Below, piece after piece: positions 7,601 through 61,935 of a DNA stretch of 64,000 nt. Source of the stretch: Zootoca vivipara (lineage: Eukaryota); contig NC_083278.1 in NCBI RefSeq assembly GCF_963506605.1, positions 36,580,001 through 36,644,000 on the forward strand, given 5' to 3'. The position numbers and the translations under genes were made by a program. Below the pieces are notes generated by a model. It saw only the letters and a list, made by a program, of their open reading frames with translations. It was not told where the DNA came from and ran no database searches. Numbering within the stretch: the first letter of the stretch is position 1; each line of letters begins with the position of its first letter.

Positions 7601-9520
7601 TGGTCTGAGAATACTCCAGTCAACTTCTCAGAGCTACAGCTTTTGGTTCATATGGTAATTTTGACTGAAACTTACCATTTACACTGTAACAAGAAGCAAC
7701 CAAGTTCATCCATCTTGGACTGAACATTTGTCCTAAGTCAATATAAAAGGAACTGACTTCATGGCATAAAGTTGGCAGATGAGTAGTTTTTGTGATATGT
7801 GACAGTGTCTTGTGTGTAACCCAAAGAGCATTATTTGGTGAAGTAGGGTATCACTATGAAAACTCATGCCACAATATATTTGTTTTGAAGATGCCACTCA
7901 AGTCTTGATTGTCATTAAGTATACCCTAAACCCTGCTCCTGCCAACAAAAGCATGTCAAAGTGCAAGTAGACAAATAGGTACTGCTCCGGTAGGAAGGTA
8001 AACAGCGTTTCCGTGCACTGCTCTGGTTTTGCCAGAAGCGGCTTAGTCATGCTGGCCACACGACCCGGAAGCTGTACCTCGGCTCCCTCTGTAATAAAGT
8101 GAGATAAGCGCTGCAACCCCAGAGTGGTCCGCAACTGGACCTAATGGTCAGGGGTCCCTTTACCTTTTTAAACATTGTAATAAGACTCTTAATAAGGATT
8201 TCAAAATATATTTTGTATGTGCTTGGAACTGATAAAAGTAAAGGTTGTTACTTACTGTTGCTGTTTTCCTGTCACCTTTCTGTAGTTTACCCAGTATTTC
8301 ATAGCCATCAGTTGTGATATTTCCACCCTCTTTGATTGGTTTGTCCATTATTTCAAAGCAGTCAATGTAAATCTTAGCATTTGTGGGAGTTACAACAATA
8401 TGAACCTGTAGAAAAATTATTAGAAAAATAACTAAATGCATGTATGTTTTTTATACACCTTAGATTTGCTGTTTAAAGTTATAAACTGTTTTGAAGGTAT
8501 AGGGGCACTGATCTAGGCATGGGTCCTCCACATGCAAGGGCTTCTTTACTAAGAAAGGCAACAGCTCCATATACAAAGTTGCTCTTGGGACTTAAAAGTG
8601 GGTGCCCAAGTTGGTGAGCATTGGTCCAGGCACTAAGGTCTGGATCAAGGTATGTAATTATTTATACAAATGGTTGAGGTGGCTAAGACCAACTATGACC
8701 ATATGAGTAAAACATTCTCGCAAAATATAGATAGAAGAATTTAAGTGAGGGTGGGTTTTGTTTTCTTCTTGTCCCAGAACTTTATTTTTCCATTTTTCCT
8801 TTCCCCACAACAGTGGTTGTATTTGAACAAAATGGGCTCACGCGCTCTCCTCACCCCTCTCCTCCTCTGGCATGACCACAAGGAAATCAAAAGCTTCCAC
8901 TTCTGTTCTGAGATCAACAACAGTTTAGTGTGTTGTCCAAACCCCAGACTGCAGACTGCAGTTAAATTTAACTATGGCTAATAAAAATAAGACTAGCTCA
9001 TCAACTACTTCACCATGGTTTGAAGTCAGCATGTTTCCACTAACTATAGTTAATAATAATCAGTTGTCTAGATTTGAGCAACATGACAAAACGACAGGTA
9101 ATCAAAAGTGGACGGGAAGGCTTCCAGATTCCTTCTCACAGCAAAGGTGCAGAAGCTGGGAGAGCACACAGGCCTGGACAAAAGCTAAGCTCATTGTTGT
9201 AATGTTAAATATTTTTGTGGTCCCTAAAATATGGTTTAGCATTATTTCTGCAGCTGTCCAATGTCTTGGATTTAGCTACAGCCAGTAGAAGTTCAAATGC
9301 ACAAGAGTTCCAAACACCTTTCCCATTCATAGAAACTGGGTGAAATAGATGGGATGGGGTGGAGAGGATAAGGTTCCTCATTTTTACAATACTAGACTGA
9401 GAACTTGAAGCATTAGATTTACTTATTCATAATCTTTTGGGGGGGAAACTGTGCTACCACCACATACTAGCATTTCACAAAAGGTATACCAAGAGTTCCA
9501 TTTTGCATCTCTCTTATCCA

Positions 9521-21500: not shown

Positions 21501-24500
21501 CAGGTTGCAGTTTTAGTACTTGGGGTATGTGATTTTATGATAATGAGAAATGTACTTGCATCCCTAACATAAAGCACAAGATAGCAGAATGGTGTTAGGT
21601 TCCCACACAGTAACCAAGAACTGCACATTTCCTGAACAATGCCATGTTTCTCTGAAAGCCCAGCATAATCCTCCAACACTACCTGTCCCATGGGGTAGGC
21701 ATGCTCTAACCAGTGGAACCTCCCATCTGAGGTTATTTTTCTCACATCTACTAGCCCAGAAAAGGGTCCTCTGTATTAATATACAGTGAAACCAAAAGCA
21801 TGAAAAGTAGTCTTACATGTAGTGCCTTGATCGACCAGAGGTGCACTGAGTCCAGAATCATACTGAGCATAAACATCTACATCATAGGAAGTACTAGGAG
21901 AAAGGTTGTGCAATGTATATGAAGTCACATCTCCAACAAACACCTCCATGGGCTCATTGGTACCTTAAAAGAAAAAATGGATTTTCATTTGCCTTAATGA
22001 CAGCAGATCTCCATCTCCATCTCCAATGACAGCTCAGAGAGAAGACTCATTTTCACATTCATATCAGTCACATTCTCATAGTGTATAAGTCTTGAAATGA
22101 ACCAATATTAAATAATGTCAAGTATACTTGAATATCTTAAGCTCAGCCTTACCAACAGGTTTGTAGACAATTTTGTACCCAAGAACAGGAGATGGTGAAG
22201 GATCCCAGGCAACTCTGAACCGTGTGTACCATTCATCTGAAATGCGTATGTTCTGAGGTGACAGCAACCCAACTGAAGAAGACAAAAATTGAGTATAATG
22301 TTAGAATGCAGAATGGTGGCATAAAATGTTATTTCTATGCCTGTATGACATCTAGCAGACTGGGTTCCTGGCAGATCAATGGATTGGACAGTGATAGTGA
22401 TTAGATAACCCAAGGTGTTCACAAAGATCCAGGTTATGGCTGTAATTCTGCCATGTCTCTGTGTTGGGACATTCAATCTTTCCCTATGCAGACACACAGC
22501 ATTTCATGTTGAATGTGCAAATATTTGAGGTACACTGAGATAGGATCTCAAATTAAGGTCCATTTGGCAAATATCAAGCATGGCAACAACTACTCTGCCA
22601 CTACTTCTGGGGGGGGGCGGGACAGTTAAGGACCATTTGCACCTCAGTTGTTTGCATATTATTTAACAGCACATCAGATGTACCTGTTTTTCCATTTCCT
22701 GTCAACTGTCCACCATCTCCATCTTCATAAACTGCCACAACGGTAATTTTGTAGGGTGTATCTGACTGCAAAGGCTGTAGCAATACATTATTTCTTCTGC
22801 CAGGCACTGTAGTCTGGAACATAATGGGAATCAAGTAAATGTTGTAGAACTGTAAATTGCTCAAAGCTGTAGTAGTACAACTTGGAGTTCTACTCCTCAC
22901 TGAAGAAGCAGCTATACTTTTATTCATAGGTTCCATAAAGTCCATTAACAAGCTTCCACTCACACAAAACACTCCTGCTGAGGGAAGGGGTATGTGGCAG
23001 TCTTTTGTCCTCCTTGTACAGTGCATATGGGGAGCTTCTGGAACAATTTGGAAGGTGGCACAGGAGAAAATGGAGAGCATCATTTCTGTCTTCCCCAGCC
23101 TTCACTAGCAGAAGAATCTGAACCTACCATGAATGAAGGGCAGTTCTGGATCCAAACCAATGCATGGGCAGGGGGGTTAGAAAATTTGTTCACTGTAATA
23201 TTTATATAGGGGTGTGTGTGTGTGATTAGAAAAGAAAAGAAATAGAAATGAAAATAAAGTAAAAAGAACACAATAGGAAAAGGATGAGGAGCACATGGAT
23301 TTATAATAAAGAAACTTTTTTTAAATAATAATTTCAGCCCCATCAAAATTAGGCTGCCTGGGGTAATAGATGGGACATTAATTTATGATATTTATATTTT
23401 AAAATGTCATTGTAATGTGTATAAAGTGATGTTTGTTACCAATGGGAATTTTTTTTTAGAGCAGCATCTGGCAACACTCAAGCATATTGCCAAACATGTC
23501 TGGCACACGTCCAGGAAACCAAAGCCTTTCTTTCAAGGATAGCCCAACATTCATTTATATGAACAAACTGCATGTGGGGGAAGGTACTACTGTTGTACAT
23601 GCACATTTAGAGAAAGAATGGCAAAACATCAACTAGTAGAGAGTGGCGGCAGACCAGAAAACCCTTTGGATGGTGCAGTGAGCCTCCAATGTATGTTACA
23701 ACCACAGTTTCTCTTGGAATGTGAAAATAACAGAACTGTGTTGAAAAAATCAGGATACAGCCTGCAACCGGGGGCTGATGCAGGAAGAGAATGCAGAAGT
23801 ACAGTAGAACGAACTAGTTCTGTCCTGTACACATGTCACTAAGCCCTGCTTATTTCCATACTCAGATCACTTTCCTAGATCTGCACCTTTGTTAGAAAAA
23901 CAGCAGATGTGGGAGGAAAATTCATGTTTTAAGGACTGGGGAGTTGTGACAGTAAACTACCATATTCACCAGTTTGGAATGCAAAGTGGAAGGTGGGATG
24001 GAATTCGCAAACTCTGTTCCTTCATCCCTTCCAACCAGATAATTACACTACCATGGCTGTACTGTACTGTCTGGACTGGCAGCAGGGAAGGGTAGCAGAC
24101 AAGCAGCTGATGAGACTATCTGTGGATCAAGTCTAGTAACTGCATTTTGTAAATTGTTTCCTTCAAAATATATTTAAGACAATGGTTTGAAGAATAAGTG
24201 ACAACACTTGTCCTTAGCTGTTTGTCTGAATGGAAACAGAATGACAGAGAATGTGAGGACCAGATCTCTGCTTCTGGTGAGAAACTGGTGGTCCGGAATA
24301 ACTCTATCCAATTCAGTATAACTGAATTACGCAAGCATTTGATCTAAAATGTGTAAGACAGAGACAGCCCTGGAAGAAAGTAGGGCTGTATACATACTCC
24401 CATTAGTTCTGCATTCTCTGTACTCCCCGCAATAGTTTGGGAAGCATTGTATACATGATAGCCAAACTCCATATATATCCTGTTGTTTTTCATGAAATAC

Positions 24501-27500
24501 TGAGTTTTGACACACTCTGCTCCAAATCAGCTTTGATCAGAACTGAGAACAAGACCCAACCTAGCTACATTTTAAGACTACACAGCCCAGATGAGAAAAG
24601 ATGAGAATTGCGGAGGGTGAGGGGTGGGAACACCATAAGTAATATTTAAATGTGATGGTTAAAATGTCCTCTGGATAGTTTATATTTATTTCTTCACGTT
24701 TCTGGGAAGATTTGTCATTAATTTCTCTTCCCCCCCCCCAAGCGAGTGAAATTCCCATAGTGAAATGGAGAGCACCATTTCTTTATTGCATGAGCACCAT
24801 TTTCAGTACAATGTGCTTTCCGTATAAGGCCAAGTTGCAGCAAAATATATTATCATTCAGAAGTAAGTAACCAGCATGAATTAGGTGGTGTTTTTATGGG
24901 CTGAACTAAGTTTCCACAGAAGTCAGAAGAAGTCATGCCATCAACCTCCCTATGGGGAAAATAATTTGGCTGCGCTGTACATCTCTAAGAGAAATCTGCA
25001 GGCATTTACCGAAGTTGTGCTGCCAAATAAGGAGAAGGAAGTTCACTTGCAAATTATAAAAATCTTGGCAGAACTCCAAACAAACAAACGAAAAGATCAA
25101 AGCTGCAGACTGCCAATACCGCTCATAATAGTCAGATACGTGATGGTCATTAGACACAGATGACAATTAAGGTTGCTGTTTATTGCTCTCCCCAACTGCA
25201 TAGAGCAGGCTCACAGAAATATATATAGCTCCACAAAAGAGGAATGTGTATTGTAAGCCCAGTTAGAAGTTGTCAAAGGGAACCAAGGTTATACTTAAGA
25301 TACAATCCAACACAGAGTTCAGCAAACTTAAGTCCATTAGTATCAATGATCTTAAATATGTCAAAAGACCTTGTGTATGCTTAAATCTGCATTGGATTGT
25401 ACAAAAAAGCTCTGGACAGACAAATGTTGCTCAGAATAAAGTTTATCACTTGCAGCTAAGGAAGTACTAATTCCATTTCAGTAGTCTGGTATCTATGCAA
25501 AAATGTCGAAAGAAGAGAGAGGAGCTTTGCTACACCATAAGAAACCTGTGGATTAATTTTTCAAACTAATGAGGAAATGTTTAGAGAGGGGAAAGAGTGT
25601 ACTCTGTCCAAAGGAGGACACATTTTGGGAGAGGGGAACATTCTTGAAAGGGTGTACCTTTACTGTGGGTGGGCAAGGACTACTGAGCTCAGGCCTGGTG
25701 CTCAAAACAGACTCAAAGGTTTGGCATTCTTGAATTCTTTTGCACATTGCTCTAGTGGATGGATCTTATGGCTTCAGTAAAAAGCAACAACAAAGCAGTC
25801 GTCGTCCCCCCCCCTCTAGTTTTTTTAGTTGCTTTTGTAGCACCGCTAAAGCCTGTCAAATATCAGAGATATCCCCAGGAAAAATGAAATAATGAATGTA
25901 TACACTGAAGGGTAAAGGAAACACTATCTCCAAAGATAGCTATTGTCTGTACACAGACTATACACACTATGGTTTGGTTAATTGCACATGCTCATATTTT
26001 TGCAAACAGCAGACAAGTAATGTATTTTTCAATCCATCAATACCTATGAGACAGGAAATTGCAAGCTTATCAAAGTAGAACAAAACGGTTCAATAGGAAT
26101 GTGAACATGCAGAATCCCTGATAAACTGACTTCCTCCAGAAGCTAAAGCCAAAAATACTTAGGTAAAGGTAAAGGGACCCCTGACCATTAGGTTCAGTCG
26201 TGACCGACTCTGGGGTTGCGCGCTCATCTCGCATTATTGGCCAAGGGAGCCGGCGTATGGTCATGCTTCCAGGTCATGTGTCCAGCATGACAAAGCCACT
26301 TCTGGTGAACCAGAGCAGCACACAGAAACACCGTTTACCTTCCCGCTGTAGCGGTTCCTATTTATCTACTTGCATTTTGCCATGCTTTCGAACTGCTAGG
26401 TTGGAAGGAGCTGGGACCGAGCAACGGGAGCTCACCCTGTCACAGGGATTTGAACCGCTGACCTTCTGATCAGTAAGCCCTAGGCTCTGTGGTTTAACCC
26501 ACAGCACCACCTGGGTCCCTATTTAAACTTAAAATACTTAAACAGAAGTAAATAAGCTGTGATATATTTCTAGCATGCCTTAATGAGAACACTTACATAT
26601 TCATCTATGGGATCTCCAACTGTGGGAGAATATATGATTCTGTATTGCTGCACAGGTCCATCAGCATGCTCCCATTGAACGGAAAGGCTGTTTGTAGTAG
26701 GATTAAAGACTCTTATGTTCCTGGGCGCACTGCGAGGCACTAAAAGAAAAAGTAGAGATAAATAAGAGCACAAAATGAAGTGGAATTTGGAAAACTGAAG
26801 TCTAAAAAGTAACCCTCCTCCACTGTATAAAGCTCTGCAATAGCTTATCTGCAAGTAAGACCTAATGCAGAAAAGTGACAACTGAACAATACTGGCACAG
26901 TTTGGAGAGAATAATAATTTATAGCATACAACTATATCTTAGCAATAAAACATGTGTTTTCTGCTTACATGTCCTTCCCTGTCCAGGACTTGAATCTCCT
27001 TCTCCATCAGCATACAAAGCAACAACATTGACAGAATAGGGTGTATCAGGAATCAGACGCTCTAGTAAAATATTGCGGGTGTTGCTTGGTACCACAACCT
27101 AAAAAGAAAGCAATACTGAAGTTTAAACTGGTGTTTTCTTTTAAATTTAAAAAATCTGAGCTTGATAGTATGAGAAGAAAGCTTCTTGAGCTCTTGACAA
27201 ACAATCTTGCTCTTTCCTTACACTTGAATGTTGTTGGGTTTTTGTTTGTTTGTTTGTTTGTTTGCTACTGGAAGGGATTTTTTAAAAAATGAAATCCTTC
27301 CCTTAATTTCTCAGACTAAATTAACCAGGGCCAGATTTGAAGTAGCACCCTGGCAAAGTGCGCTCTGGCTGTCCTCTTCTCAAACCAGTGCCCACCCACC
27401 AGTGGACTTATTTGCTGCCTGTTGACAGCAGCAACAAGCAGAGCTGTGATCTGCTTGCCACTTAATTTTCCACAGTACAACCATAGCTGCCAAGTTTTCC

Positions 27501-30500
27501 CTTTTCTCGCGAGGAAGCCTATTCAGCATAAGGGAAAATCCCTTAAAAAAGGGATAACTTGGCAGCTATGAGTACCACAGGCCACCATTATGTTGGGGAC
27601 TTTGTGGCAGGTGCCAACCTACACAGTAAGCTGTTTTTACACGCTATGGTTCTTGTATGGAACCACCATCATGCAGAAGCATTTCTCGACATCCTATGAG
27701 GCAGCTATAATGTATGAAGTTGCCCATTCATAAATCATAGAATCATAGAGTTGTAGAGTTGGAAGGGACAATGAGAATCATCTACTCCAACCCCCTACAA
27801 TGTAAGAATATTTTCCCCAACATGGGGCTTTAACCACAACCCTGATATTAAGAGTCTCATGCTCTACGGACTGAGTTATCCCAGCTGTCATCCATCCCTA
27901 ACCTGATGACCTCCAGATGTTTTGGATTCCAACTCTCTTCAGCTCCAGAAACAACTGGAAGGCACCAGGTTGGCGAAAGGCAGTACAACAGGGTATCTGC
28001 TGAATACTGAGAATCTGTAGCATTTTAAGAGGGAAAATGTATTATTTAATCATAAATTCATATAAGAGAAAGTTACTCCCGATCATGCAGCTAGTTCAGT
28101 GCATGTTATAGTTTGGGGTGCAGCCAAGCAGTCATCTGAGAGAGTTATTAGGTGGTGAAATTGGTTTGCTTCCCAAAATAAGCTGACTAACTTTCCTCCC
28201 AGATTTCAATAAAGGTTGAAAATGAAACTGACCTTGCATTTAACATTTACCTTATCTGATTTTGGTCTACCGATGTTTACAGTTAAATTAAAATATGTGC
28301 AGCAAATATAGAACGACATTCAGAGAAGTAGGATGGAATAGGACACTTTATATAGATATATGTGTTTTCACCAGAAATAAATCATTGTAGTATGCCTTTA
28401 TACCCAATAATTCATATATGGAAAGGCCCAGGAGGTTAAATTACTTACAGATTCTGATGGCCGTGTGCCAACCAATGGAGCATAGACAACTCTGTATTGC
28501 TGCACTGGTCCTGGTGCAGGTTCCCATTGGACATTAAGACTGTTGGCTGTTGGGTTGTAAACTTGGATGCCTCTTGCTGTTCCTCTAATTACTGAATCAA
28601 AAATAATATAATATAGTTTTGAACTAAATAACTCCTTAGTTGCAGAGCCAGGTAGCAGGAGAGAGCAGCTATAAAATGAATGGACTATTCTAAGAATGCT
28701 GTTGCCAAGGGTTGGGGAATCAGTGGACTTCAGATGTTGTTGGGATTCTAACTACTATCGGCTCAAACTAGCATGATTAATATTCAGGGATGATGGGATC
28801 TTGAGTCCAGCAACATCTGGAGGGCTAGAAGTTCTCCAACCCTGTATTTTCTCTTTAACACCACAGTTAATTGGAAATAAATTCCATTTAAAAAATTGCA
28901 TTTATTTCCAAGTAAACATGGATAGGGTTGGGATGTAAAATAGTGTAATCCTATAGACATTTAACCTAGGAGTACATCCCACTAAACTACATAGACACAA
29001 ATAAGATTGCATTGAAAGCTCATAACATGGTGGCAGAGACCTTATCACTCAGAGGGATCTATATTCATGTTCTTATCCTACTCTGTATTAGAGAATTGGA
29101 AAATACCCTTTCACATTTCCCTGTCCATAGAGGGAAGTGTGTGCAAAAGGGCCTCAAAAGGTTTCATCTTAACTATCTGTACAATAGTATAATATGGTGC
29201 GGTTAACTAAGTTAATTAAAATAAGTGGGTTTAAGTAGCTCAGCACTGAATTGTGGCTCAAAGCCCAATGCCTTCATTATTTTATGAAAAAGAAGAAACA
29301 ACACAGTGTTACTTACAAGTTTTCCCATTGTCAGATGCTCGCCCTCCATCACCTTCTGGGTAAACAGGAATCACAGTTACTTTGTACTGTGTGTCAGGCT
29401 GGAGATTTCTTAGAACTGCATAATTTGTGTTGCCTGGAACAGTTGCCTGTTGGGTTACAAAAGGAAAAAAGGCAGAGGAAATGGTTTTATTTGGATATTT
29501 TCCACCATGTAAGGACTGATCTTCATGTTCAAAGGACAACAAGATGAGCCAGCTTAGCCCAGAGGTTCCAGAGGCAGAATCGCTATCTGGCAGGTGGGTC
29601 ACTGTTGCTTATTGGAAGGGAGAGGAGCATGGTATTGGGGAGTCTGGTGTGGTGCAAATGCTCCAGCAGAGCAAATCCGCAGCCCTGCCAGTGTGTCTGC
29701 ACCACTCTAACCTTCTCCATCTTCTTCCTGATATGCAAAAGAAATTCACCCACCAGGGGGGTAGAGTAGTAGCTCTGCCCACTCCAGCAAGCTGTTTCCT
29801 GCATGAAAGGGTTGCTGCATGTTTTAATCTGCCCAGCCAGATGTCAACAATGACTGCTCCCCACATCAAATGGGGGGCATACTTTGCGCGGACGCACACA
29901 GCACCCCTGATCTTACACAGCTCCTAGCAGTATTGCCTGGCATCGCCCCCCCCCCCAAGGCTGGGTACCTGGAGGTTCCTGCCCAACCTCGGACAGTCAA
30001 CCAATCATGGTGGGGGAGGCATTGCCAGGGGAGTTGGCCAGGTAGGGGGTGGGACTTCCCCACCCACACAATAGAGGGCACACATCGCAGTCGGCTCCAG
30101 AGCTTCTCCCACCCCACCCTCCCTCAGTTAAGCTTTCTTTTGCAGGTTAACTTCTTCTTCACAGGTATACTGGCGCTGCTATGTATTGGTCACTGTTAAA
30201 GGGACAGAACATTGGCAGGTTCTGCCTTCCCTGTAGCAAGGCAGTGGGGACTGTCATACATTGGTTCTGCTCCTTCCTCCTGGGCCGTGTTCAGAAAGTG
30301 GTGGTGGGGGATGAGTGCTCAGACCCCTGGGCTCTCACTTGTGGGGTGCCTCAGGGTTCTGTCCTCTCCCCCATGCTTTTTAACATCTATATGAAGCCGC
30401 TGGGAGAGATCATCAGGGGGTTTGGGCTGGGTGTTCATCAGTATGCGGATGACACCCAGCTCTACCTCTCTTTTAAATCAGAACCAGTGAAGGCGGTGAA

Positions 30501-33500
30501 GGTCCTGTGTGAGTGCCTGGAGGCGGTTGGAGGATGGATGGCGGCTAACAGATTGAGGTTGAATCCTGACAAGACAGAAGTACTGTTTTGGGGGAATAGG
30601 GGGCGGGTGGGTGTGGGGGACTCCCTGGTCCTGAATGGGGTCACTGTGCCCCTGAAGGACCAGGTGCGCAGCCTGGGAGTCATTTTGGACTCACAGCTGT
30701 CCATGGAGCCACAGGTTAATTCTGTGTCCAGGGCAGCTGGTACGCAGGCTGAAACCCTACCTGCCCGCAGACTGTCTCACCAGGGTGGTGCATGCTCTAG
30801 TTATCTCCCACTTAGACTACTGCAATGCGCTCTACGTGGGGCTACTTTTGAAGGTGACCCGGAAACTGCAATTAATCCAGAATGCGGCAGCTAGACTGGT
30901 GACTGGGAGTGGCCGCCAAGACCACATAACACCGGTCCTACATTGGCTCCCAGTACGTTTCTGAGCACAATTCAAAGTGTTGGTGCTGACCTTTAAAGCC
31001 CTAAATGGCCTCGGTCCAGTATACCTGAAGGAGCGTCTCCACCCCCATCGTTCTGCCCGGACACTAAGGTCCAGTGCCAAGGGCCTTCTGGAGGTTGCCT
31101 CACTGCGAGAAGCAAAGCTACAGGGAAACAGGCAGAGGGCCTTTTTGGTAGTGGCACCCGCCCTGTGGAACGCCCTCCCATCGGAGGTCAAGGAGATAAA
31201 CATCTACCTGACATTTAGAAAACACCTAAAGGCAGTCCTGTTTAGGGAAGTTTTTAATCTGTGATATTTTAATGTCTTTTGGTATTTTCGGGAAGCCGCC
31301 CAGAGTGGTTGGGGAAACCCAGCCAGATGGGCGGGGTATAAATAATAAATAAATCACATCTTTGGTGGTTTCAGACCTTGGGTGGAATCCTTTAGTCTTT
31401 CTTCCCTACAATGGGGGGGGGATAAGCAGTGACCCACCCACCCCTGCGGCAGTGATCCCAGGGTTCCCCGATAATGGGGTTGTTCTGAGGGGAGTCATTG
31501 ACCATATGCCAAGAGGCTGTCACTGGTCTCCCCTGTGTTGCAGCAAATTGGGGGGGGGGGCGCTCTGCTTGAAGAGACATTCTCCAGAGCCAGTCCAATC
31601 CCCACTCAATCTGGATAACCCTGATGTTCCCCAGATCCCCGGCTGGGGGCTGGGAAGGATAAACGCCCAAGGCCTCCCTACGTCTGAATCTTAAATAAGG
31701 TTGTGGCCAATTTTAATCCCATAGCACAGTGTTGTGTGTCTTTATTCCACACGGGAGCCAGTCTTGGGTTGGGGGGGGGGGTCTCCGCCTGTCTGCACAA
31801 TAAGGATTGTGCCCTAGCTTTCTCCCTGGCTTGCCATTGTTCTACGCTCATAGAGTAGGAGTCAAGCATATGAACTCCTCACCTGTACACTTAAGTAGTA
31901 CAGTCCCAAGAGGGTTGTACCATGCACAGTTTTCTGAATAGAAAATTCAGCTCTAAGTGGTGCCCCAGCCCAATTATGAAACCACCCCTAGCACAAACAG
32001 TTGCAAGTTCAGGGCAAGTATGAAGTATACAGAAGTAAATAGGAATACCAGTTCATCTGCACCTCCTGCCACTGGTGCATAAAACAACTTGTACTGACGA
32101 GGGTTCCCTTCAGCATGATCCCATCGAACATTCAATGTGCTGGTAGTTGGATCATAGACTCTGAGGTTCTTCACAGTGTTGAGAGGTTCTGAGATAAATA
32201 GATAAATAGAATGCATTGTCAGGCTCAGAGAATCTTACTATTGTGCATCATGTTGCCGTCTTATGTGAGTGGCTATGCCTAGCTTTGGTCAGTGACAAGT
32301 ACAGGTAACACTTTGTCTAACAACTACTCTTTGGACTTACAAACACTTGCAAGATGAATCTAGTCTGCCATACTTGAGCACAAAGGGAGTTGAAAAATAG
32401 GGGATGCAGTTCCTGGCTGCTGCTTTGACTCACAGGGAGGCTTAGGAAGGAAAGAACAGCTATTCATCCTTCCAACCCAACAGCCAGCCTGACATGCTGC
32501 TCATGGCATGACTGAGTTGCCACTTGTCTTGTGTCTTCACTCTCAAGGGATGGGGCAAATGTGCATTGTAGAATTGGAAGGAACCCTGAGGATCATCTAC
32601 TCTAACTGTCCCATATGGGGATTGAATCTGTGACCTTGGCATTATCAGCACCACGCTCTAACCAACTGAGCTATCCAGTTGTAAAATAGTGATGTAACTC
32701 CATAATGCAAATATGGGAAAGGATTTGTCAGTTCAGTTCTCGCTGTTTCTCACTTTTCCCAACTTAAATTCCACATTTTGCAGAAATTTGTGTTCATTTG
32801 TTTGTTTTTTTTAAAAAAATCCTCATGAAATTCATCAACATTTTACTGAAAAATTCTCTTAATAAATATATTTCATATGCATTTTGATTAATGTACACAT
32901 TTTTGCAAACAATTATCCCTACCTGCATTTTTGTATGTTTTTTTCACTAATGCATTTATTTTAATTCACACTTTCCATAATATATGCATTTTGGTAAAAA
33001 AAAAAAACCACAAACAAAGAAACACCGGAGAACTGCATCGCAAAATTTGGATAAATGTGAATTTCAAAGGCTATTCTCATATTGTTTTGGAAAGGGCAAA
33101 TTTTATAGTTTTTAGCCTTTAAATGACAACTGATTTGAATTTCTCCCCCATCCGTAGATGGGGGATTTATTTCCAGGTCCGAGGGCCACTTTTCCTTGTG
33201 GGGAACTTTCCAGTAACAGGCAGGGCTAGAGGCAAAAGTGCAGAAGCAATGGATTTGTGTCTAGTGAGCTACACTCCAGCCATGCAAAAATCAGAGGCTT
33301 CAGTAGACACACAAATCTCTATCCCTCCGTTCAGGCAAACAAGAAGAATTATCACACTGCAAAGTCACATTCCAGCCAGGGAAGAACATTTGAGGAAAGC
33401 ATAGAGCAGACCCTGTATGGTACATGGCTTGGGGAATGGCCATGGGAGAGCCTCACGGGCTAGATAGAATGCCTGGAGGCCACATTTGTTCCCAGGCCTG

Positions 33501-36500
33501 TGGTCATAGTGAAAAGACAGGATTAAAATATGACTAATAAATATTATTCGCCATCTCAACAATACCGTGTCCCTTATGACACATACCCCTTGAACTATTC
33601 CTACCATTTTGCCTTCCACTCTTTGGACTAGTGTACTTATCTACTTGATTCCCACTGTTAAGAAAAAAAGTTATTTCCATTCTGGATAACTACAAAGTAC
33701 AAATAAATGAATATCTGCACAAATAAATGAACATCTGTAGGGACTTCAACAAAGGAAAAGCCAAGTCTGCCAACTTTATAAGTGATTTAGCATTACTCTT
33801 GCATAATTCTTCACAAATGAGAAAACCAACGTTGTTTTACTTACTGGTTTTGCCACTGCCTGTCATTCGTCCCCCTTCACCTTCTGCATATATGGATGAA
33901 ACTGTAACACTATAACGTGTCTCAGGTTGCAGCTTCTGTAGGACAACACTGTTCTGCCTCCCTCCTACTGTGGTCTAAAAAACAATGGAATGAAATGTAA
34001 ATTGAAAGGGCAGGCGGCTAAATTCCAAAGATGCTGAAAGGATACAGTTTGTATATACTACAAGTATACAAGTTTCTGTTTTTCAGACAATACTGTCTGC
34101 CTAAGTCCTTCAGTGGATTAAAGAAAAAATACCAGAATTGCATTAGTCATTTGTTAAACCCATGTGAATAAAATTTTAAATGTTGAATGATCTGAGCTCT
34201 TTATGGATCGTCTTTCTTATTTCTACATATTAGTGAGTACAGATCTCCAAGTCCTCAATCTACAGCTAAAGGGCATATAAGGCCAATTCTGGTACCCAAA
34301 GAAAATTAACCTTGATGTTTATTGGAACAGCAAAACATGATGATTCCCACATTGTCCCATGATCTAAATGCTTTGTCTATGGGCTCCAAAGAAATATCTT
34401 CTGTTGTGGCCAGTTGGACAGATATTGTCAGCATTTACAAAGACCAGACGCTACAAAGTTCCTACATAAAAAGCATTTCCATAAAGAGAAAAGCATGTAC
34501 AAGTAATAAATGAACAAGTAATATAAACACACTAGGAAGCTGTGAATACACACAGCAAAATAAAAATACAAGAGTCCTGTTGGAGTAGAACAAATGACTC
34601 TCTAGTCAGCATTCTGCTCCCACAGTGACCAACCATATTACATACAATTGTGACACATGACAATTTAAAATAATCTGCATGCTTTTTCACTGTGGTATGT
34701 CAGAAATCTGCTATGTTTGAAAGAGCCTTTGGACAGAAAAACCCCAGTAAAAAGCAATCCTTGGCAACTGTTTGTTCTGCAGGCTCTGAGAAAGTGATAT
34801 TTGCTGGATTACATCTGAAAGACCACCATGAGTCATCTTGTGGGTTCTACTTATACAGGAAACAAATCCACTTTCTTTGATTTTGTAATATAAATACTTT
34901 TCTGCAGAACTGTAGAACATGAAAACAAAACTATCTGACAAGCTCATGTTTTCAAAAGCGGATATTTGTTCAGGAGCGCATTGCTGCTTTCCCCCATGAG
35001 AGAATAGTTTCAGAGTTGGTTACCGATTGTTCAGCACCATCGCCAGTTGTAGGTCGATAAGTGATCCTGTACCGCTGCACTCGTCCAATGGCAGGATCCC
35101 ATTTGACCGTCAGGCTATTGGATGTTGCATTGTATACCTGAAGGTTTCTTGGGGGACCTGTTGGAGCTGAAATGAATTTATGAAAGGGTTGTTTAGCAAA
35201 GAGATATAACAAACAACATACAATGGGTATCTGAAGAAGCGTGCATGCACATGAAAGCTCATGCCAATGACAAACTTAGTTGGTCTCTGGAAGGTGCTGC
35301 TGGAAGGATTTTTTTTTAACATATACATGACATTACTCAAAATCAGCAGCAGCCTCATTACCTTGGAATAACAATACACATATAGGGGCCTGCTGAGAAC
35401 AAAATCTACCCAACTGCAGAATTTGGGCAAGATTATATAAGACATATATAAGAAGGGGCAAAGGAGAATTGAATGGAAATGTTGCGTAGCGCTAAACATG
35501 ACTAATGGGGAGTAGAACATCACCAAATATACAAAAGTTGCTATTAATTCACCAAGTTGTCACTTTTTAAAAAAGCCACCCTATCCTTTGTATGAGTGGA
35601 AAGTACTTCAGTGGACACAACTTTTTTCTTCTGCCTGCATCACCTCAAACCACACACCCTCTGAAAAGCCTGCTGAAGTTCAGGCAAACCTCCAGAGCAA
35701 CACCCCACAATGCATGACAGAACCTCAAGAAGGGGCAAAGCCTGTGTACAGACAGGAGTACTTTCAGCAGTAGAAAATAAGGTAGTGGTATTTTCCCAGT
35801 AGTGATGGTGATCTCGGGGCAGGGGTGGGGGGACAAAGTGGCAGTGGTGAATTGGGGGAACTCTAGGATGGCAGAAGCTCTACAGGTGTATGTGTTAGGA
35901 TCTCCTACTCGTGAATGGCACCATTGCCTCTGCCTCTCTCCCCTTTTATGAGTCACCCCTAAGTATACTATATAGAAACATTGGCTTCTCTGCATCCTGT
36001 CTTGGCTTGAACTAGCTCTGTCTTATAGTATCTGTATAATCCTCATATATAAAATATTATTAATGAATTCAGGTTCTTACCTGCTGTTGTCAGAGGTACC
36101 TCGGGCACTATAGGAGGGGGAGAAGCACAAACAGGGCAAGTTTGCATTAAAAACATGTCTTTCATTTGAATACTATTGTTACAAATTGTAATCCATGTAT
36201 GAATGCGTTTCAGAATTTCTTACATGTGGTCTCACTGCCAATCAGTTCATCACTCTCTGATTCATCGGGATAAATTGCAGTAACTCCAATCTCATAGAGT
36301 GTGTCTGGGTTCAAATTTTCAAAAACTAGAGTATTTTCATCACCATTAAGAATTGTCTTTGGAAGTGACGGGGGTGGGGGGAAAGAAAGAAAGTTACTCA
36401 TTGAGTCAATATATTTAACAATTAACATTTTTCATGGACTAGAACAAATAATTTATAAACATTTTACTACTTTTTGAAACTAAGTTGTATTGCCTCTCTT

Positions 36501-39500
36501 TTCTTGCTACTGCATGAAAAAGCACATGAATCTGACTTTTGAAGAGTTTTTAAGTAAACCATTTTTAACTTACCAAACTTGTAGTCTCTTTCTATACTAA
36601 AGGAAGTGGGTAACTTTGGAAACGATTTAGAAGGGGATATTTTAAAGATCTAAGGGACCCAGGTGGCGCTGTGGTTAAACCACTGAGCCTAGGGCTTGCT
36701 GATCAGAAGGTCGGCGGTTCGAATCCCTGTGACGGGGTGAGCTCCCGTTGCTTGGTCCCAGCTCCTGCCAACCTAGCAGTTCGAAAGCACGTCAAAATGC
36801 AAGTAGATAAATAGGAACCGCTACAGCGGGAAGGTAAACGGCGTTTCCATGTGCTGCTCTGGTTTGCCAGAAGCGGCTTTGTCATGCTGGCCACATGACC
36901 TGGAAGCTATACGCAGGCTCCCTCGGCCAATAATGTGAGATGAGCGCGCAACCCCAGAGTCGGTCACGACTGGACCTAATGGTCAGGGGTCCCTTTACCT
37001 TTACCTTTTATTTTAAAGATCTAACAGCTTTACTTTGCTGCATGTTCTGCGATTTTAAATCTCTGCTGGGGATCATTCACTTTACCTCCCTCCAAGTAAG
37101 TTCCTTCTGCACACTGAAATGGAGAGGGTGAGGGAAGAGGTGGCAGTAAGATCAGCACACAGCAGCAACTCAGGCAGAGGGGGGTTAAGCGAGCAGTGCA
37201 ACCCCACCATACTATCCACTAAAATTGATCGCCAAATGGACCATTGCACAAAAAGTGCAATACTATCCTTGAGAACTCACTAACTGGATAAAGAGGAAGA
37301 TGGGGTGCCAGGAGGCAATATTAAATGAGCTAATCTATAGTTGCAAGGAGGAGAACACATACAGTCACTTTTGTATACAAAAGGATTCAATGTGTCTCCA
37401 GACTTAATGAAGAAACCGATTCCCTAGGTATCAAAAGTTTAGAAAACACAGTGGCCAGTTTAACATTTCCAGCAAACAGCATTAAGCACACAAAAAGGGT
37501 TTAAAGTGATTGATTTTGGGGTTATTGAAAAATTCTTACCTGTAGCTTCTCTTCACCAGGTGGTCCCCATTCTACTCTGTAGAGAGCTACATCAGGTGCT
37601 CCATGGTCCCAAGTACCTCTGAAACTTGTCTTGGTTACTTGATCAGTTCTTAGATTTTGTGGTGCTGGTACCGGTACTGTCAGGAAGGGGAAAGTAAGAA
37701 ATTACCTCACAAGAGGAAAAAAATCCTGCAAACTAAACATCACTAGAAATGCAAGGTTATATGCAGAGACTAATGTACCACATAAGGTGTTTGGCGTTTG
37801 GACACAAACCACATGGGGAATGTATAGAACAGTTTACATGCCATATACTCATAGGGTGAAATCCTTAATTTCTCTAGAACAGCACAGACTCTTTTACTAC
37901 AGTAGGATTGTCAGGCTCAGGTCTTTTTGCTCCACAGTCTGCACATTGCAGAATGCCACTACATCTGCCATGGCCAGAATCAGAATATGGCAAGACCGAA
38001 AATCTGCCTGGGGCCTATGGATAGTTGAGGAGCTCAACAAGCCCATTTTCACTCAAACTACAATGCATGGAAACAGGAGTTTTAACACCTCTTCTTCATC
38101 TTCCATAGTGCACTTCTCTATCTGTTCAACATCCTTCCCCCACCCCCACCCACCCCATGTTTGTGCCAGTGACGAAGTCTCTATTCACATCTTAACTGCT
38201 TCCAGACAGGGGTGGTCACAGAAACACAATCACAGTGATTTTTATCTATAAAGATTGTATGTGTATATAAGCTGTCTCAACAACATGCTTCCTTTATAAA
38301 CTTAGTGGTGCGCTGCAGATGAGTACTGGAACAATCCTACCCAGGTGAACTCTGTTAAGGTGGGTGTGCAGGGGCTTGGTGTACACGGACTACAGTGTCC
38401 ACAGTGTTCTGGCTGGGATATGGCCAATTCTATGTTGTCCCCTTTGGCCCTTTTCTCTGCCTTTATGAAACCTCTTCAGGTTTCTGGTCCTTGCCAGATT
38501 TTTTGTGTTGCTGCTTTTCCCATACTGCACATCCAACTTTGTGTTTTCTTTCCCTGTGTTCCTCATGAGTCCTAAACACCAGACCTCCAAGTGATCTGGG
38601 GTGCAAAAGTTCATGCCAGGTGTGCCCTACAAAATGTCCTCCCACTGTTATGTGAGTCTGCCATGCCTGTGGGCAGTGGCATGAACTAGCAAATGAAAAA
38701 GGTGATCCTTTGCAGCTTTCTCCTTGAGAACCAAAGGCACTATTCACAACAATATACCTGAGGAAAGCTGTACCAAAGACACTGTTTAGTCACCACAGTG
38801 GGCATTATGCTAATCCTGATGCTGTGCCAGAGAAGCTAATTAATCAATGCAGTTTCTGGCAGTGTGCCTGATAGGAGCTATTGCCAAGGATACTGCCTGG
38901 ATTTGAATCCATGATCTCATTGGTGGATACAGTTCCTATGTTAATGGCAGCATGCTTTTTGCTGCCCAATTTGTGGTTGCTACATATACTGTAGAGATGG
39001 GAGCTGCTGCTTTATCTTTTCATGTTTTCCTTCTGGCACCTCCCACCTAGGATGATGATAAGGAGAATAACCTAAGTCTCTTCCTCTAGAGTCATTCTGG
39101 TCTAGGCCGTTACTCTTTACAAAACTCAACATTTTAAACCCTACATTTCTTTAAGAATCTAACACAGCTATGGAGACTTTTTGGTACTCCAGATGTTGCT
39201 GAACTACAATTCCTATCATCCTTGGCCATGCTTGCTGGGGCTGGTGGGTGTTCTAGTTTAGTGACATTTGGTGGGCCAAAGGTTCTCCACACCTGATCTA
39301 AGAAAACCTATTAAGCAATAGATTTGACTTACAAGTGGTGCCTTCTGCAGCTACTGGCATAGATGGTCCTTCGTCATATACTGCAACGAGCTCAACATTA
39401 TAGAGTGTTTTTGAATAAAGATCAGGGAGAACTGTGCTGGTCTGAGAGGGATCCAATTCCAACTAGACATAAACAAAAAAGATTTATTAAAATGCTGCTT

Positions 39501-45500: not shown

Positions 45501-48500
45501 ATTAAGAGACACTTAAGCTTTGCCCTAAGTAGTTACTTCATTCCAGCTGTTATGGTTACCACTCATAGGTAAAGGACCCCTGGATGGTTAAGTCCAGTTA
45601 AACTTGACTATAGGGTGTGGTGCTCATCTCGCTTCAGGCTGAGGGAGCCAGCGTTTGTCCACAGTTTTCCGAGTCATGTGGCCAGGATGACATTGCGCTT
45701 CAGGTGAAATGGGACACTGTGACGAGTGTTGGCTCCCACACGGAAATGTTATTTATTTTCCTGCAGCAGTGGTACCTATTTATCTACTTGCACTGGCAAG
45801 ACAACTTTCTGCCTGGTAACTCCTAGTTTGGAGATCACTTATACAGAGTAAGATTATGCAGTGATGCTCCCTGTGAGATGTCTGTAGCACAGGCATTTTT
45901 GTTGTTGTTCCTTAAGGGCTACTATAGGGGACTGAAGGTCTTGGCCGAGGAAATTGGGGGAGCGTTCTGAAGAGATTCTGTGGAGTGTTGTTTGAAGAGA
46001 CTGAGTGGCAGCAGATAAACTGAGGAGATTAAAGGAACACTTCTTTGTCCACTCTATAAAGTCAGTATAATATATTCAAAACAAAAAATCTTTTCAGACC
46101 ATACAACATTGTATTCATTTCCCCAGTGTACCTTATGAGGAATTCAGCAGCAGAATGTTACCTGTGAGGGTGTTCCCTCCTTTATAAGGCAAGTTGACAA
46201 CAGCATCCAGCAAACTCTGTTTGGTTTTGTGTGCATTGAGGTTCCATTCTGTTCTAGGAGATCCACTATACTGTGCAAGAGCTGGGAGAGAAATATAATT
46301 TAGTTGCCAAAGGTCCCGAAACAGCAACACCCCCCAAATTATTTCAGGACATTCAGGCTTACCAATCTGCACTTTGTCGGGACCAATGTCAAATACTTCA
46401 ACAATGCGACCAATGAAGTTTCTGATTGTTTTAAAATTTTGCCGGCCAATGCTCCACGAGCCATCCACCAGCAACACAATATCTGCTTCTGCTTTGGTTT
46501 TGCATTCCAGGCCTGTCACAGCAATCAAAATACAAGTGTGTTAGTTGCAGCAAACAAACAGCTGTTCTCTATCCTATCCTCTTTTACATTGTCCAGCATG
46601 CATGGCTTAAGTAACTGACTAGTGTTCTTCTATATACATTGGAACTTAAAGTCGTTAGGAGCATTCCATAGTGCTACCAATAACACTTCCGAGATTATGT
46701 ATTATTAATATTTGCTTTAAAAGATGTGCTGTGAAGCATATTCTGGTGAGCACTGCCCATAACACTGACATGATCTATTAGAATATTACTTAGCCTGGGC
46801 CCAAGTGCAGTGAGAATCAACACACCTAAATTATTGAACAACTAAATAAACTTAAGTTAGATAGCCAATGACAATGACTACTTCAAAATTGCACATCTTC
46901 TCCAATTAAATATGTGTGAGCTTTGATAAAATCAAAGAATCTTTAGAAATTAGCCCATATACTTAATATGTGGAGATAAATGATGAAATTAATTTTATAC
47001 TGTTTTGTGGTCTGTTAATGAAGATGGTGCAGACTTTTACACATTTAACACAACAAGAGAAAGAACACAACACGTATAAGATACAGAAACACACATAGAC
47101 ACAAAAGAATCAGAAGTGACAAAAACAAACATTTATACAAAGTTTTAAATGCTTCAGAGAGAAAGTAAATAAAATATTGGGGACCGTCCACTTGTAGGAT
47201 AAAAATAAGAACTGCTTTCTACATGCTGAAAATCACAGTGTGTTTATACAAAGCAGAAAGACACAAGGGTTTAAATGATCCTTTCATTAGCCGTTTGAAT
47301 GGGTGTATGTGTGCTCTTCCTCCTTTTTTCCTCTGCAGATCATGTTACCAGCAGCAAAACCTTCTGGCTTCATGCCATCATAGCTTCTGGTCTTTACATG
47401 GAAGAAATCTCACTGAGTAAAATCAGGCACACTCATCAGAGTGATTTCATCTATGTTCCACATTATTGATCCAAAACTGTAGATTCATGAATAGAACTAT
47501 TCCAGGTACCTGAGGATTTAAAAGCATGATCCTCTTCTGCATAGAAAATACAACACTAGTCTTTAATCAACACAATCATAAATCATGAAATAGGGTATAT
47601 ATTAAAGTTCATGCACTTGCTAACACTGTTCAGGATTCAAAGAGCCTTGTGTGAGAGGAGGGGACCAGAAAAGCCCTGATAATTATGAATGTAAAGCAAC
47701 ACACACAGGTGTCTGGAGTCTGGCCTTAATTTTAAACATTGGAAATATCAATCCCATCAAATCTTTTGTAAATTTAGCCTCCAACCAGAAAGCCATGGCA
47801 GAAAGTCTATATGTTTTAATACAATACATGCAGCATATGGATTTTTATGAGCACAATTTTCCATAAAGGCTGCCACTTTACCTCATTTATTTAAAAAAGA
47901 AAGAAAGAAAAGCATCTCAGATTGTAGGGAATAACTGCAGGAATAAAGGGAAATTGCAATGATTTAAGCGGGGTATTATCCTGCCAACATCAGGAACTTG
48001 TTAGGGCGCACTCATTTCAATGGGAGAGAGTTAAGTAGTGCTCAACTACATTTTACTCAAAGCGGACCCACACAGATTGACGTAAGTCATGTTCATTCAT
48101 TTCAATTAGCCTACTCTAAGTAAAACTTAGTCAAATAGCAGCCCATATGCTTAACTGTCCCCCTAAGAATAAATAAGACTGAAAAATGCCTAATTTTAGC
48201 CAGACTGTACCTACTGAGTTGGATCCAAGGGTTCCCTCCTGTAAAGGATGGACTTTTCCATTCTCAAAAGTATTCTTTCCTCCATAAGAATGGAACACAG
48301 CATAACTCAGTATAAGTGACTTTAATGGAATTAATGAACCCTGCATTTCTTTCACTCCCTTCAAAGGAGGAATTCATTTTTCTGCCTCTTTTGCAGGGAG
48401 CAAGAGAACTTTGCAAACAAAAAACAAAAAACAAAAAACAAATCATAGGATGGAGGTGAGGACTGCATTTAGCTTATCATGTCAGTCAGGTGGCCAATGG

Positions 48501-48757: not shown

Positions 48758-49632
48758 CTTCTGGGCTGAAAGGCTGCTTGCAAAAAGCCCTGCAAGTGAG
48801 AGGGGGTGGGGGCCTTTCCTAACACTGCTAGATGCAATCCCCGCTGCTACACACACATACATGCCTGTTCTATGAATTTTGTTCAAGTTTCACTTTTTGA
48901 AAATATGTTCATGGCCACCCACACCCTCTTGAGGGGAGGCACTGTGAAGTTTCAGCACATTGTTCATTTTCTGTATGGAGGAGTTAACTACTATTTCCCA
49001 TTTTACTATATACCTCCTGACAATGTTTCAGTTTTGGCCAGTGAATTATTGTACAGTGCTATCCTATGCACGCTTACTCAGAAGCTGCACTGTGTGGACT
49101 GGGGCTTACTCCCTAGAAAATGGATTTAAGATTGCACTATCAAGCAGATACAATGCAGAAACAGTCCTGGATCCAAAGAACCGAAGAAAGTAATTCCAGA
49201 TATCCATGTTTGCTTTGAGTTTTTCAAACACTTGCCATAGAGTAAGCCTCTTGAAAATTAGGGGAATGTTCAAACATGTTCAAACATTCACCACATAGGT
49301 CAAAGAATTTTTTTAAAAATTCAGTGGGTGGAATCATTGGACACAATAGCTGTTTGGATCCTGGCCAAATTTTATTCACCCTAAATCAGGCATAGACAAA
49401 CTCAGCCCTCAGATGTTTTAGGACTACAACTCCCACCATCCCTGACCACTGGTCCTGTTAGCTAGGGATGATGGGAGTTTTTGTAGTCCCAAAACATCTG
49501 GAGGGCCAAGTTTGCCTGTGCCTTCCCTGAATTCTGTGAAAGGCTTCAAAATCCTTCCCACAGCATTTTCTAATTTCCAGAGAAAAGGACAGTGGTGGCA
49601 CCATATGGGCTGCTCATTGACTCCATATAGTG

Positions 49633-61799: not shown

Positions 61800-61935
61800 C
61801 AGGGTTTCCCAAATTTGGGTCTCCAGCTGTTTTTGGACTACAGCTCCCATCATTCCTAGCTAGCAGGACCAGTGGTTAGGGATGATGGGAATTGTAGTCC
61901 AAAAACAGCTGGAGACCCAACTTTGGGGAACCCTG
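61800..61935. mobile_element. hAT MITE
   Basis: CAGGGTTTCCCAAA..GGGTCTCCAGCTGTTTTTGGACTACA / TGTAGTCCAAAAACAGCTGGAGACCC..GGGAACCCTG; TSD 6/8. Confidence 0.85.

Follow-up and report, generated by a model that had tools for sequence, protein, structure and literature searches.

Opposed Sauria/Squam1 SINEs around nine exons of COL12A1 in Zootoca vivipara probably form an incidental bracket

The window analysed here is a 64,000-nt stretch of the Zootoca vivipara contig NC_083278.1 (assembly GCF_963506605.1), and carries COL12A1 exons on its minus strand. When a lacertid COL12A1 protein, named collagen alpha-1(XII) of Zootoca vivipara, was mapped with splicing, 65 coding exons were placed in a 102-kb gene and all residues were identical (3121/3121). 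Pfam recognized 18 fn3, 4 VWA and Collagen matches in the product, which has the domain set and the orthology of the FACIT collagen XII. The exon numbers used below presuppose one non-coding first exon.

The exons that matter here, all on the minus strand, encode FN3 domains in halves. The first half of FN3-12 is encoded by exon 28 (37540..37676) and the second half by exon 29 (36224..36356, 133 nt). Exon 30 (36081..36107) is a 27-nt linker exon, and is followed by exons 31 (35024..35166, 143 nt) and 32 (33845..33974, 130 nt) for the two halves of FN3-13, exons 33 (32049..32188, 140 nt) and 34 (29317..29446, 130 nt) for those of FN3-14, exons 35 (28449..28591, 143 nt) and 36 (26969..27098, 130 nt) for those of FN3-15 and exon 37 (26597..26739, 143 nt) for the first half of FN3-16. 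Exon 38, located by the spliced mapping at 22684..22813, encodes the second half of FN3-16. The sequence-only reading had proposed that exons 29 to 37 form a circle by back-splicing of the exon 37 donor to the exon 29 acceptor, or are skipped by joining the exon 28 donor to the exon 38 acceptor. The underlying arithmetic was borne out: the nine exons, all with AG/GT ends, add up to 1,119 nt and run from phase 0 to phase 0 in the protein mapping. Intron 28, with a strong GTAAGA donor, is 1,183 nt long, an unremarkable length that exceeds that of 40 of the 64 COL12A1 introns.

Two full-length SINEs flank this block in opposite orientation. The upstream copy in transcript order (36654..37008, plus strand) is a young element in intron 28, antisense in the pre-mRNA, whereas the downstream copy (26161..26520, minus strand) belongs to intron 37, is older and has the sense orientation in the transcript. 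The similarity first noticed by eye was reproduced by a self-BLAST of the window, in which the alignment of 26161-26520 with 37006-36653 (360 columns, 92.2% identity, E 8e-148) was the top non-self match. The upstream SINE is 297 nt from the exon 29 acceptor and the downstream SINE 77 nt from the exon 37 donor, in agreement with the spacing given earlier; the gap between the arms is 10,133 nt. The upstream copy contains an A-box-like motif, TGGCGCTGTGG, and a B box, GGTTCGAATC, and the downstream copy has the B box GGTTCAAATC. In both copies the A-box-like motif is at position 11-12 and the B box at 63-65, as in a tRNA-type head with RNA polymerase III boxes. An Rfam search of 22000-46000 gave no match at the gathering score. 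Sauria/Squam1 SINEs are characterized by a 3′ end in (ACCTTT)n and a target site duplication (TSD) that begins with T (PMC13295347). Both copies end in ACCTTT repeats, (ACCTTT)2 in the upstream tail, and both TSDs begin with T on the element strand: a perfect 16-nt repeat, TATTTTAAAGATCTAA, at 36638 and 37009 for the upstream SINE, and a 10-nt repeat at 26152 and 26531 for the downstream SINE, AAAATACTTA on the plus strand and thus TAAGTATTTT on the element strand. Tail, TSD, box features and high copy number point to Sauria/Squam1 as the probable family. The family also shares its 3′ part with Bov-B/RTE LINEs; here a 19-nt core agrees at 16 of 19 positions with the 3′ terminus of a LINE recognized by its RT, a candidate counterpart.

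The two copies differ in age, judged by their nearest relatives. The upstream SINE is up to 98-99% identical with copies elsewhere; for the downstream SINE, nearest identities are about 93-94%, the best other copies reaching 94% among 40 scored of 2,696 candidates and 92.8% in the sampled blocks described below. The young copy inserted into an older interspersed repeat with approximate ends at 36444..37080 (no strand assigned), whose other copies are 83-88% identical, self excluded, among 40 scored of 1,256 candidates. All seven paralogous loci of this host repeat that were fetched pass from 36647-36653 to 37009-37030 without a SINE. Two joints of the X6 assembly, 36582-37028 and 36593-37027, were considered as an empty SINE site in another species, but they are unusable as such evidence because the flank is a repeat whose copies elsewhere also lack the SINE. 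Among the DNA contigs listed for X19, none reaches across 36547-37059; the young upstream insertion may be lineage-specific. Distinct TSDs, the 8% divergence of the copies, intact exons and the complete protein match rule out an assembly artefact. Origin of the pair by gene conversion or by one inverted duplication was also rejected: the similarity does not extend beyond the elements, and for each of them there are more similar copies elsewhere.

If both SINE arms coexist, a long duplex is predicted, with 331 Watson-Crick and 7 GU pairs, a longest unbroken run of 72 and an energy of -694 kcal/mol, or -438 kcal/mol net over both self-folds. The upstream SINE has competing partners in introns 9 and 13, which are transcribed earlier than the intron 37 SINE and have predicted energies of -680 and -690 kcal/mol vs -694 kcal/mol for the intron 37 copy. 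Altogether COL12A1 contains five antisense/sense Squam1 partners, with three predicted duplexes near -690 kcal/mol. Further rivals are a degenerate Squam1 piece in intron 19 (45567..45794, minus strand; weak, -231 kcal/mol with the upstream SINE) and a 5′-truncated Squam1 in intron 52 (7948..8167, plus strand; -344 kcal/mol with the downstream SINE). For TBXT it was reported that the nearer, 1,448-bp pair dominates over a 4,188-bp pair (PMC10901737). Intron 33 also holds a broken RT-encoding LINE piece (30259..30518, plus strand; Pfam RVT_1, E 6e-18), which is an 87% inverted match to 43619-43883; this second pair crosses the SINE pair.

RNA evidence for the region around exons 28-30 came from two RNA-like assemblies, X1 and X6, out of 14 RNA-like contig sets. 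In the raw reads of X20, of which about 6 in 100 were read, exons 28-30 had zero depth, which says nothing about silence of the gene. No break occurs at the exon 28 donor or the exon 29 acceptor in the 4,443-nt contig of X1 (depth 85.6) or in the 570-nt contig of X6 (depth 965), and both contain the joint 36107-36224 between exons 30 and 29. Exons 28, 29 and 30 are spliced canonically in both. Among the entries listed for these contigs there was neither a loose end at 36356 or 37540 nor a back-splice junction; contigs drop rare variants, and these negatives speak against major forms. X1 deviates from the window sequence at 37639 and X6 carries the label of another organism; their source animals may or may not have both SINEs. 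At the protein level, forms without residues 1699-2071 were absent from the 15 listed lacertid isoforms (of a cluster of 28) and from 119 aligned vertebrate orthologs, the latter ranked by their score on the exons 29-37 region, which disfavours skipped forms. The listed isoforms differ by a deletion of residues 23-1183 and at the C-terminus, matching the known long and short N-terminal and C-terminal variants of COL12A1, and none of the 15 alters FN3-12 to FN3-16. The claim that the SINEs drive a circle or a skip was upheld in its geometry, phase and half-domain register but not for a meaningful level of either product, since contigs and isoforms were canonical only.

The frequency of such arrangements was estimated from five arbitrarily chosen 200-kb blocks (1.0 Mb). 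With a minimum length of 300 nt, this sample contained 17 SINE copies at 90% identity or more, and 30 at 85%; other lacertid assemblies have 65,094-130,894 Squam1 copies (PMC10670947 Table 1). When all repeat families were counted, under the limits of 300 nt, 90% identity and a gap of at most 12 kb, the blocks held 5 inverted and 7 direct pairs. In simulations a tight inverted bracket arose in COL12A1 by chance in 0.5-3.6% of cases, and a rough estimate with an assumed number of acceptor-donor pairs gives roughly 4-110 tight brackets genome-wide. The similarity of the two SINEs is non-random, yet typical of any two copies of the family, and their arrangement is uncommon but expected. The inverted arrangement around exons 29-37 is most likely a product of chance.

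Several functional outcomes can be weighed against this. That the pair generates an abundant circle of exons 29-37, translated by the rolling-circle mode into a poly-FN3 chain, is in our judgement exceedingly improbable. The circle does have the predicted properties: its length is divisible by three, frame 0 has no stop whereas the other frames have 17 and 27 per turn, the single in-frame Met is codon 138, and the back-splice string CCCATAGATGAATAT/ACAATTCTTAATGGT, like the skip string GAGAAGCTACAG/ACTACAGTGCCT, agrees with the window. Alignment register and phase arithmetic also confirmed that half-domains would rejoin in register at the junctions, and the back-splicing geometry is ideal. Infinite-frame translation is reported for circEGFR, circNFIB and circTau 12-10, which are likewise divisible by three and stop-free; those circles have junction and translation evidence (PMC11724312), whereas the COL12A1 circle is a prediction. 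Stop-free circles are, however, the norm in this gene, resulting from 307 of the 533 exon runs of at most 12 kb (58%), and because so many runs share the property the open frame carries no signal of selection. The circle would lack the signal-peptide exon, so that its product would be expected in the cytosol; the exon 29 acceptor shows no branch among the entries listed for X1 and X6, and for the circle to be abundant, and then translated, would take additional steps that have no support. Traces of the circle are plausible, although their detection in deep RNase R data seems somewhat doubtful.

Highly improbable, too, is an appreciable in-frame skip, which would remove four FN3 domains, 373 residues in all, from collagen XII and leave a hybrid FN3-12/16. 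Phase 0 at both ends and the preserved register would permit it, the hybrid scores 96 bits with the FN3 profile vs 86 for domain 12 and 110 for domain 16 (an additive score that is silent on folding), inverted repeats of whatever sequence can cause skipping (PMC10901737), and fish orthologs with one to eight additional FN3 repeats in the block indicate that its length can vary in evolution. Against this, nine exons over 10 kb would have to be lost simultaneously, contigs of depth 86 and 965 cross the exon 28-29 joint unbroken, the form is absent among the 15 listed lacertid proteins, FN3-12 and FN3-16 agree at only 13/45 and 15/43 residues in their respective halves, an FN3 count of 18 is conserved in 8 of the 12 orthologs counted, and the dominant disease alleles of human COL12A1 include in-frame deletions elsewhere in the chain (PMC12154473). 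We regard as very improbable the combined case, in which a very recent, possibly polymorphic SINE insertion causes a nine-exon loop-out giving both the shorter hybrid-domain chain and the stop-free circle. Rather unlikely, too, is that the arms anneal, either mutually or to their counterparts in introns 9 and 13, and are edited by ADAR, splicing being slightly slowed or mRNA output lowered with exon joining unchanged. The five partners and three strong duplexes favour such editing, and inverted SINEs are known to be edited in mammals; the spans to be bridged, 10, 28 and 35 kb, are large, and the variants in upstream-SINE reads, mostly C>T and G>A, cannot be assigned to the COL12A1 locus because the reads stem from thousands of other copies.

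We consider it likely that introns 28 and 37 acquired, by chance and in opposite orientation, two abundant Squam1/Sauria SINEs of different ages, each with its own TSD, and that splicing is normal with trace by-products at most. The bracket is real and probably incidental. On kinetics that we infer, the short intron 28 with its strong donor would usually be spliced out during transcription of the 10 kb that lie between it and the partner SINE, and the copies in introns 9 and 13, being made earlier, would compete for the upstream arm. With a short intron 28 and competing copies, the duplex would form in a minority of transcripts. The outcome would be at most trace circles of exons 29-37, with skips from exon 28 to 38 rarer still and some A-to-I editing within the introns, all presumably by-products without selected function. 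Mammalian circRNAs are described as splicing by-products that track young TEs (PMC8516420). What speaks against the incidental reading is that the predicted duplex is very strong, both arms are less than 300 nt from splice sites in textbook geometry, the per-gene chance is no more than a few percent, the RNA negatives carry little weight, and real circRNAs are flanked by young-TE dimers (PMC8516420).

The earlier premise that inverted SINEs promote back-splicing and skipping is sound, and the COL12A1 pair is the lizard counterpart of inverted-Alu brackets. With the circRNA exons between dimers of young SINEs (Alu, B1, ID, opossum SINE1; PMC8516420) it shares inverted copies of a recently active SINE family specific to its lineage in flanking introns, constitutive exons and a long gene. 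Relative to those mammalian dimers, COL12A1 differs in its Squam1/Sauria SINE, its short upstream intron (1,183 nt), its nine exons over 10 kb and in that no junction read was seen. The TBXT AluY-AluSx1 pair (PMC10901737) and inverted-Alu loop-outs (PMC13019027, PMC13019944) likewise combine a young SINE opposite an older relative with enclosed coding sequence, and the COL12A1 skip would be in frame. In TBXT, exon 6 alone is skipped, the arms are 1,448 bp apart, and the isoform was shown and is lost when either Alu is deleted (PMC10901737), whereas COL12A1 has nine exons, 10,133 nt between the arms and no isoform seen. A squamate case of inverted-SINE splicing or a circCOL12A1 was not found among the listed titles and abstract openings of the open-access literature.

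If the loop-out were true, control of splicing by inverted SINEs would extend from mammals to squamates, a nine-exon in-frame loop-out would reshape a structural matrix protein, and a comparison of carriers and non-carriers of the insertion would offer a natural experiment on SINE-pair isoforms of a matrix protein outside mammals. As it stands, the COL12A1 bracket is probably one of tens in the Zootoca genome, and its main use is as a test locus.

Spliced mapping of a Zootoca vivipara collagen XII protein, a member of a lacertid cluster of 28 proteins, onto the window and the stretches next to it yielded 65 coding exons, and all 3121 residues of the protein were identical. The minus strand of the window carries most of the gene, as an exon search leading to proteins named collagen alpha-1(XII) indicated. 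Numbered on the assumption of one non-coding first exon, exons 29–37 measure 133, 27, 143, 130, 140, 130, 143, 130 and 143 nt; these lengths, their sum of 1,119 nt and the phase 0 at both ends bear out what the sequence-only reading had given. Intron 44 contains a 63-nt tandem duplication (17370–17503, 98%).

COL12A1 introns are mostly phase 1, and FN3-9 to FN3-16 are each cut by a phase 0 intron at an identical position. The predicted circle of exons 29–37 can be read without a stop in frame 0, where it has one Met, but in neither of the remaining frames. The endless frame proposed earlier would thus exist, but it is not special: among 533 contiguous internal-exon runs spanning no more than 12 kb, 316 are a multiple of three in length and 307 would close into a circle free of stops, so that the open frame follows from the intron-phase architecture of the gene. 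The proposed rejoining of half-domains fared similarly. The hybrid of the first half of FN3-12 and the second half of FN3-16 scored 96 bits on the FN3 profile and the reciprocal hybrid 99 bits, the halves of the two domains being only about 30% identical. Such hybrids would be in register, with profile scores like those of natural domains, but all 64 half-domain combinations score in this way (80–118 bits).

Two Sauria/Squam1 SINEs flank these exons, the upstream copy in intron 28 (36654–37008, + strand) and the downstream copy in intron 37 (26161–26520, − strand). The inverted pair is real: 26161–26520 matches 37006–36653 with 92.2% identity over 360 columns, the arms are 10,133 nt apart, with 297 nt separating the upstream copy from the exon 29 acceptor and 77 nt separating the exon 37 donor from the downstream copy. 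A-box-like and B-box motifs occur in both copies, which also end in an ACCTTT tail and are flanked by a target-site duplication starting with T; these are marks given for Sauria SINEs (PMC13295347). The upstream SINE has a perfect 16-nt target-site duplication, 19 CpG and relatives at 98–99%; in the downstream SINE the duplication is 10 nt and CpG number 14, and of 40 candidates scored the best relatives reach 94%. They are separate insertions of different ages. Around the upstream copy (36444–37080, also in L123–L129, other stretches of the same genome) lies an older unnamed interspersed repeat with at least 1,256 candidate copies, 83–88% alike and about 450–550 nt between paralogs. All seven fetched paralogs read straight through an empty site. 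Judged from these paralogs, the upstream SINE was inserted into the older repeat, and the pair dates from the younger of the two insertions. Among the contigs listed for the DNA run X19, none bridged the upstream SINE site.

The isolated duplex of the two SINEs was computed at −694 kcal/mol, a net −438 over the self-folds, with 331 Watson–Crick and 7 GU pairs, 15 mismatches and 9 gap columns. Two near-full Squam1 copies inverted to the upstream SINE are rivals for it (stretch L012, G000:C3; window-equivalent 64807–65133 in intron 13 and 72280–72632 in intron 9; 94% and 92%). They would pair with it at −680 and −690 kcal/mol, respectively, lie 28 and 35 kb away, and are transcribed before it. 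About 310 nt separate the intron 9 copy from the acceptor of exon 10, which follows it. Since intron 28 is short (1,183 nt) and has a GTAAGA donor, it is likely removed before the downstream partner exists, as general co-transcriptional splicing would lead one to expect. Of the Alu duplexes captured in human cells, most lie within a single intron, exon-spanning ones declining with exon number (PMC13019944); in TBXT the nearer repeat pair prevails (PMC10901737); and folding energy differs little between exons that can be skipped and constitutive ones (d = −0.12, PMC13019027). Introns 33 and 22 hold pieces of RT-encoding LINEs (30259–30518 and 43619–43883, 87% over 267 nt) that form a second inverted pair; it crosses that of the SINEs, and exons 23–33 (phase 0 to 0) would lie between its arms. 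Short palindromic MITE-like elements lie in introns at 40084–40235, 61800–61935, 49379–49514, 41274–41499 and 52926–53009, some mutually inverted across exons.

Four runs were compared over 35950–37760, and the splicing result rests on contigs of the RNA-like assemblies X1 and X6, the raw reads of X20 being without exon 28–30 coverage. The X1 contig (4,443 nt, depth 85.6) carries exon 28 at 617–753 and exon 29 at 754–886, followed by exon 30, and from its length should extend beyond the exon 37/38 junction. The X6 contig (570 nt, depth 965) runs through exons 27-28-29-30 into 31. Among the X1 and X6 contigs listed, none had a loose end at the exon 28 donor or exon 29 acceptor. For the circle or skip proposed earlier there is the geometry; against it, canonical exon 28-29-30 splicing is the main form in X1 and X6, contigs dropping rare forms. 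In about 1.3 kb of this interval X19 departs from the window at 14 listed single-copy positions and by small indels, hence diverged lineages share the one species label; a change at 37639 is common to X19 and X1.

At the protein level, loss of the 373-residue block was seen in none of the 15 listed of the 28 cluster proteins (two from Zootoca; 367–373 residues identical), which differ by known long/short N-terminal and C-terminal forms. Residues 1699–2071 were absent from 0 of 119 aligned orthologs, taken from the best 120 of 740 in a search that favours unskipped forms; one gene prediction among them is without FN3-12 alone. Many fish collagen XII proteins (among P0014–P0132, against P0140, residues 1794–1953) have one to eight extra FN3 repeats in the FN3-13 to 15 block, and FN3-10 (about residues 1470–1562) is missing in several annotated proteins (worm lizard, salmonids, coelacanth).

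In 1.0 Mb, sampled as five 200-kb blocks chosen arbitrarily, the upstream SINE had 45 relatives of 300 nt or more, 30 of them at ≥85% and 17 at ≥90%; other lacertid assemblies are reported to hold 65,094 to 130,894 copies (PMC10670947). In these five blocks, pairs of any family (300 nt, 90%, up to 12 kb apart) numbered 5 inverted and 7 direct. The L020–L021 region (C3 block 189241–195053) and the L112 region (C14 block 102880–108692) each contain a 428-nt direct repeat (100%, 4,958 nt apart), a layout resembling a young LTR element. When SINEs were dropped by simulation into COL12A1 introns at the densities found in the five blocks, between 0.5% (90%, 300 nt) and 3.6% (85%, 500 nt) of trials produced a tight inverted bracket, as did 2.4–6.1% given the four copies that the gene actually has. 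The genome-wide expectation is roughly 4–110, assuming 0.3–1 million acceptor–donor pairs. By these figures the bracket is uncommon per gene, yet expected somewhere in a genome scan. If it acts at all, it would act like an inverted-Alu bracket; the sequence feature of that class is present, its defining feature is a junction read, and the COL12A1 pair is known from sequence. We found no report of such brackets in squamates (open-access literature, titles and abstract openings) or, by titles, of a COL12A1 circle of exons 29–37.

Pairing that leads to editing or slower splicing with exon content unchanged is unlikely. Appreciable skipping of the four FN3 domains is very improbable. In people, in-frame COL12A1 exon loss, elsewhere than FN3-12 to 16, has been linked to dominant myopathic EDS (PMC12154473), and this analogy suggests that a strong skip would be costly. 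An abundant and translated circle has a precedent (PMC11724312) but appears slightly less probable still. Much the most probable explanation is that two SINE insertions fell by chance in opposite orientation around exons 29–37, that their duplex would form in a minority of transcripts, and that such occasional pairing would yield trace by-products only, a view also taken of young-TE-associated circRNAs in mammals (PMC8516420). Under chance insertion, deep RNase R data may still reveal a trace circle of exons 29–37, a real possibility somewhat short of an even prospect.
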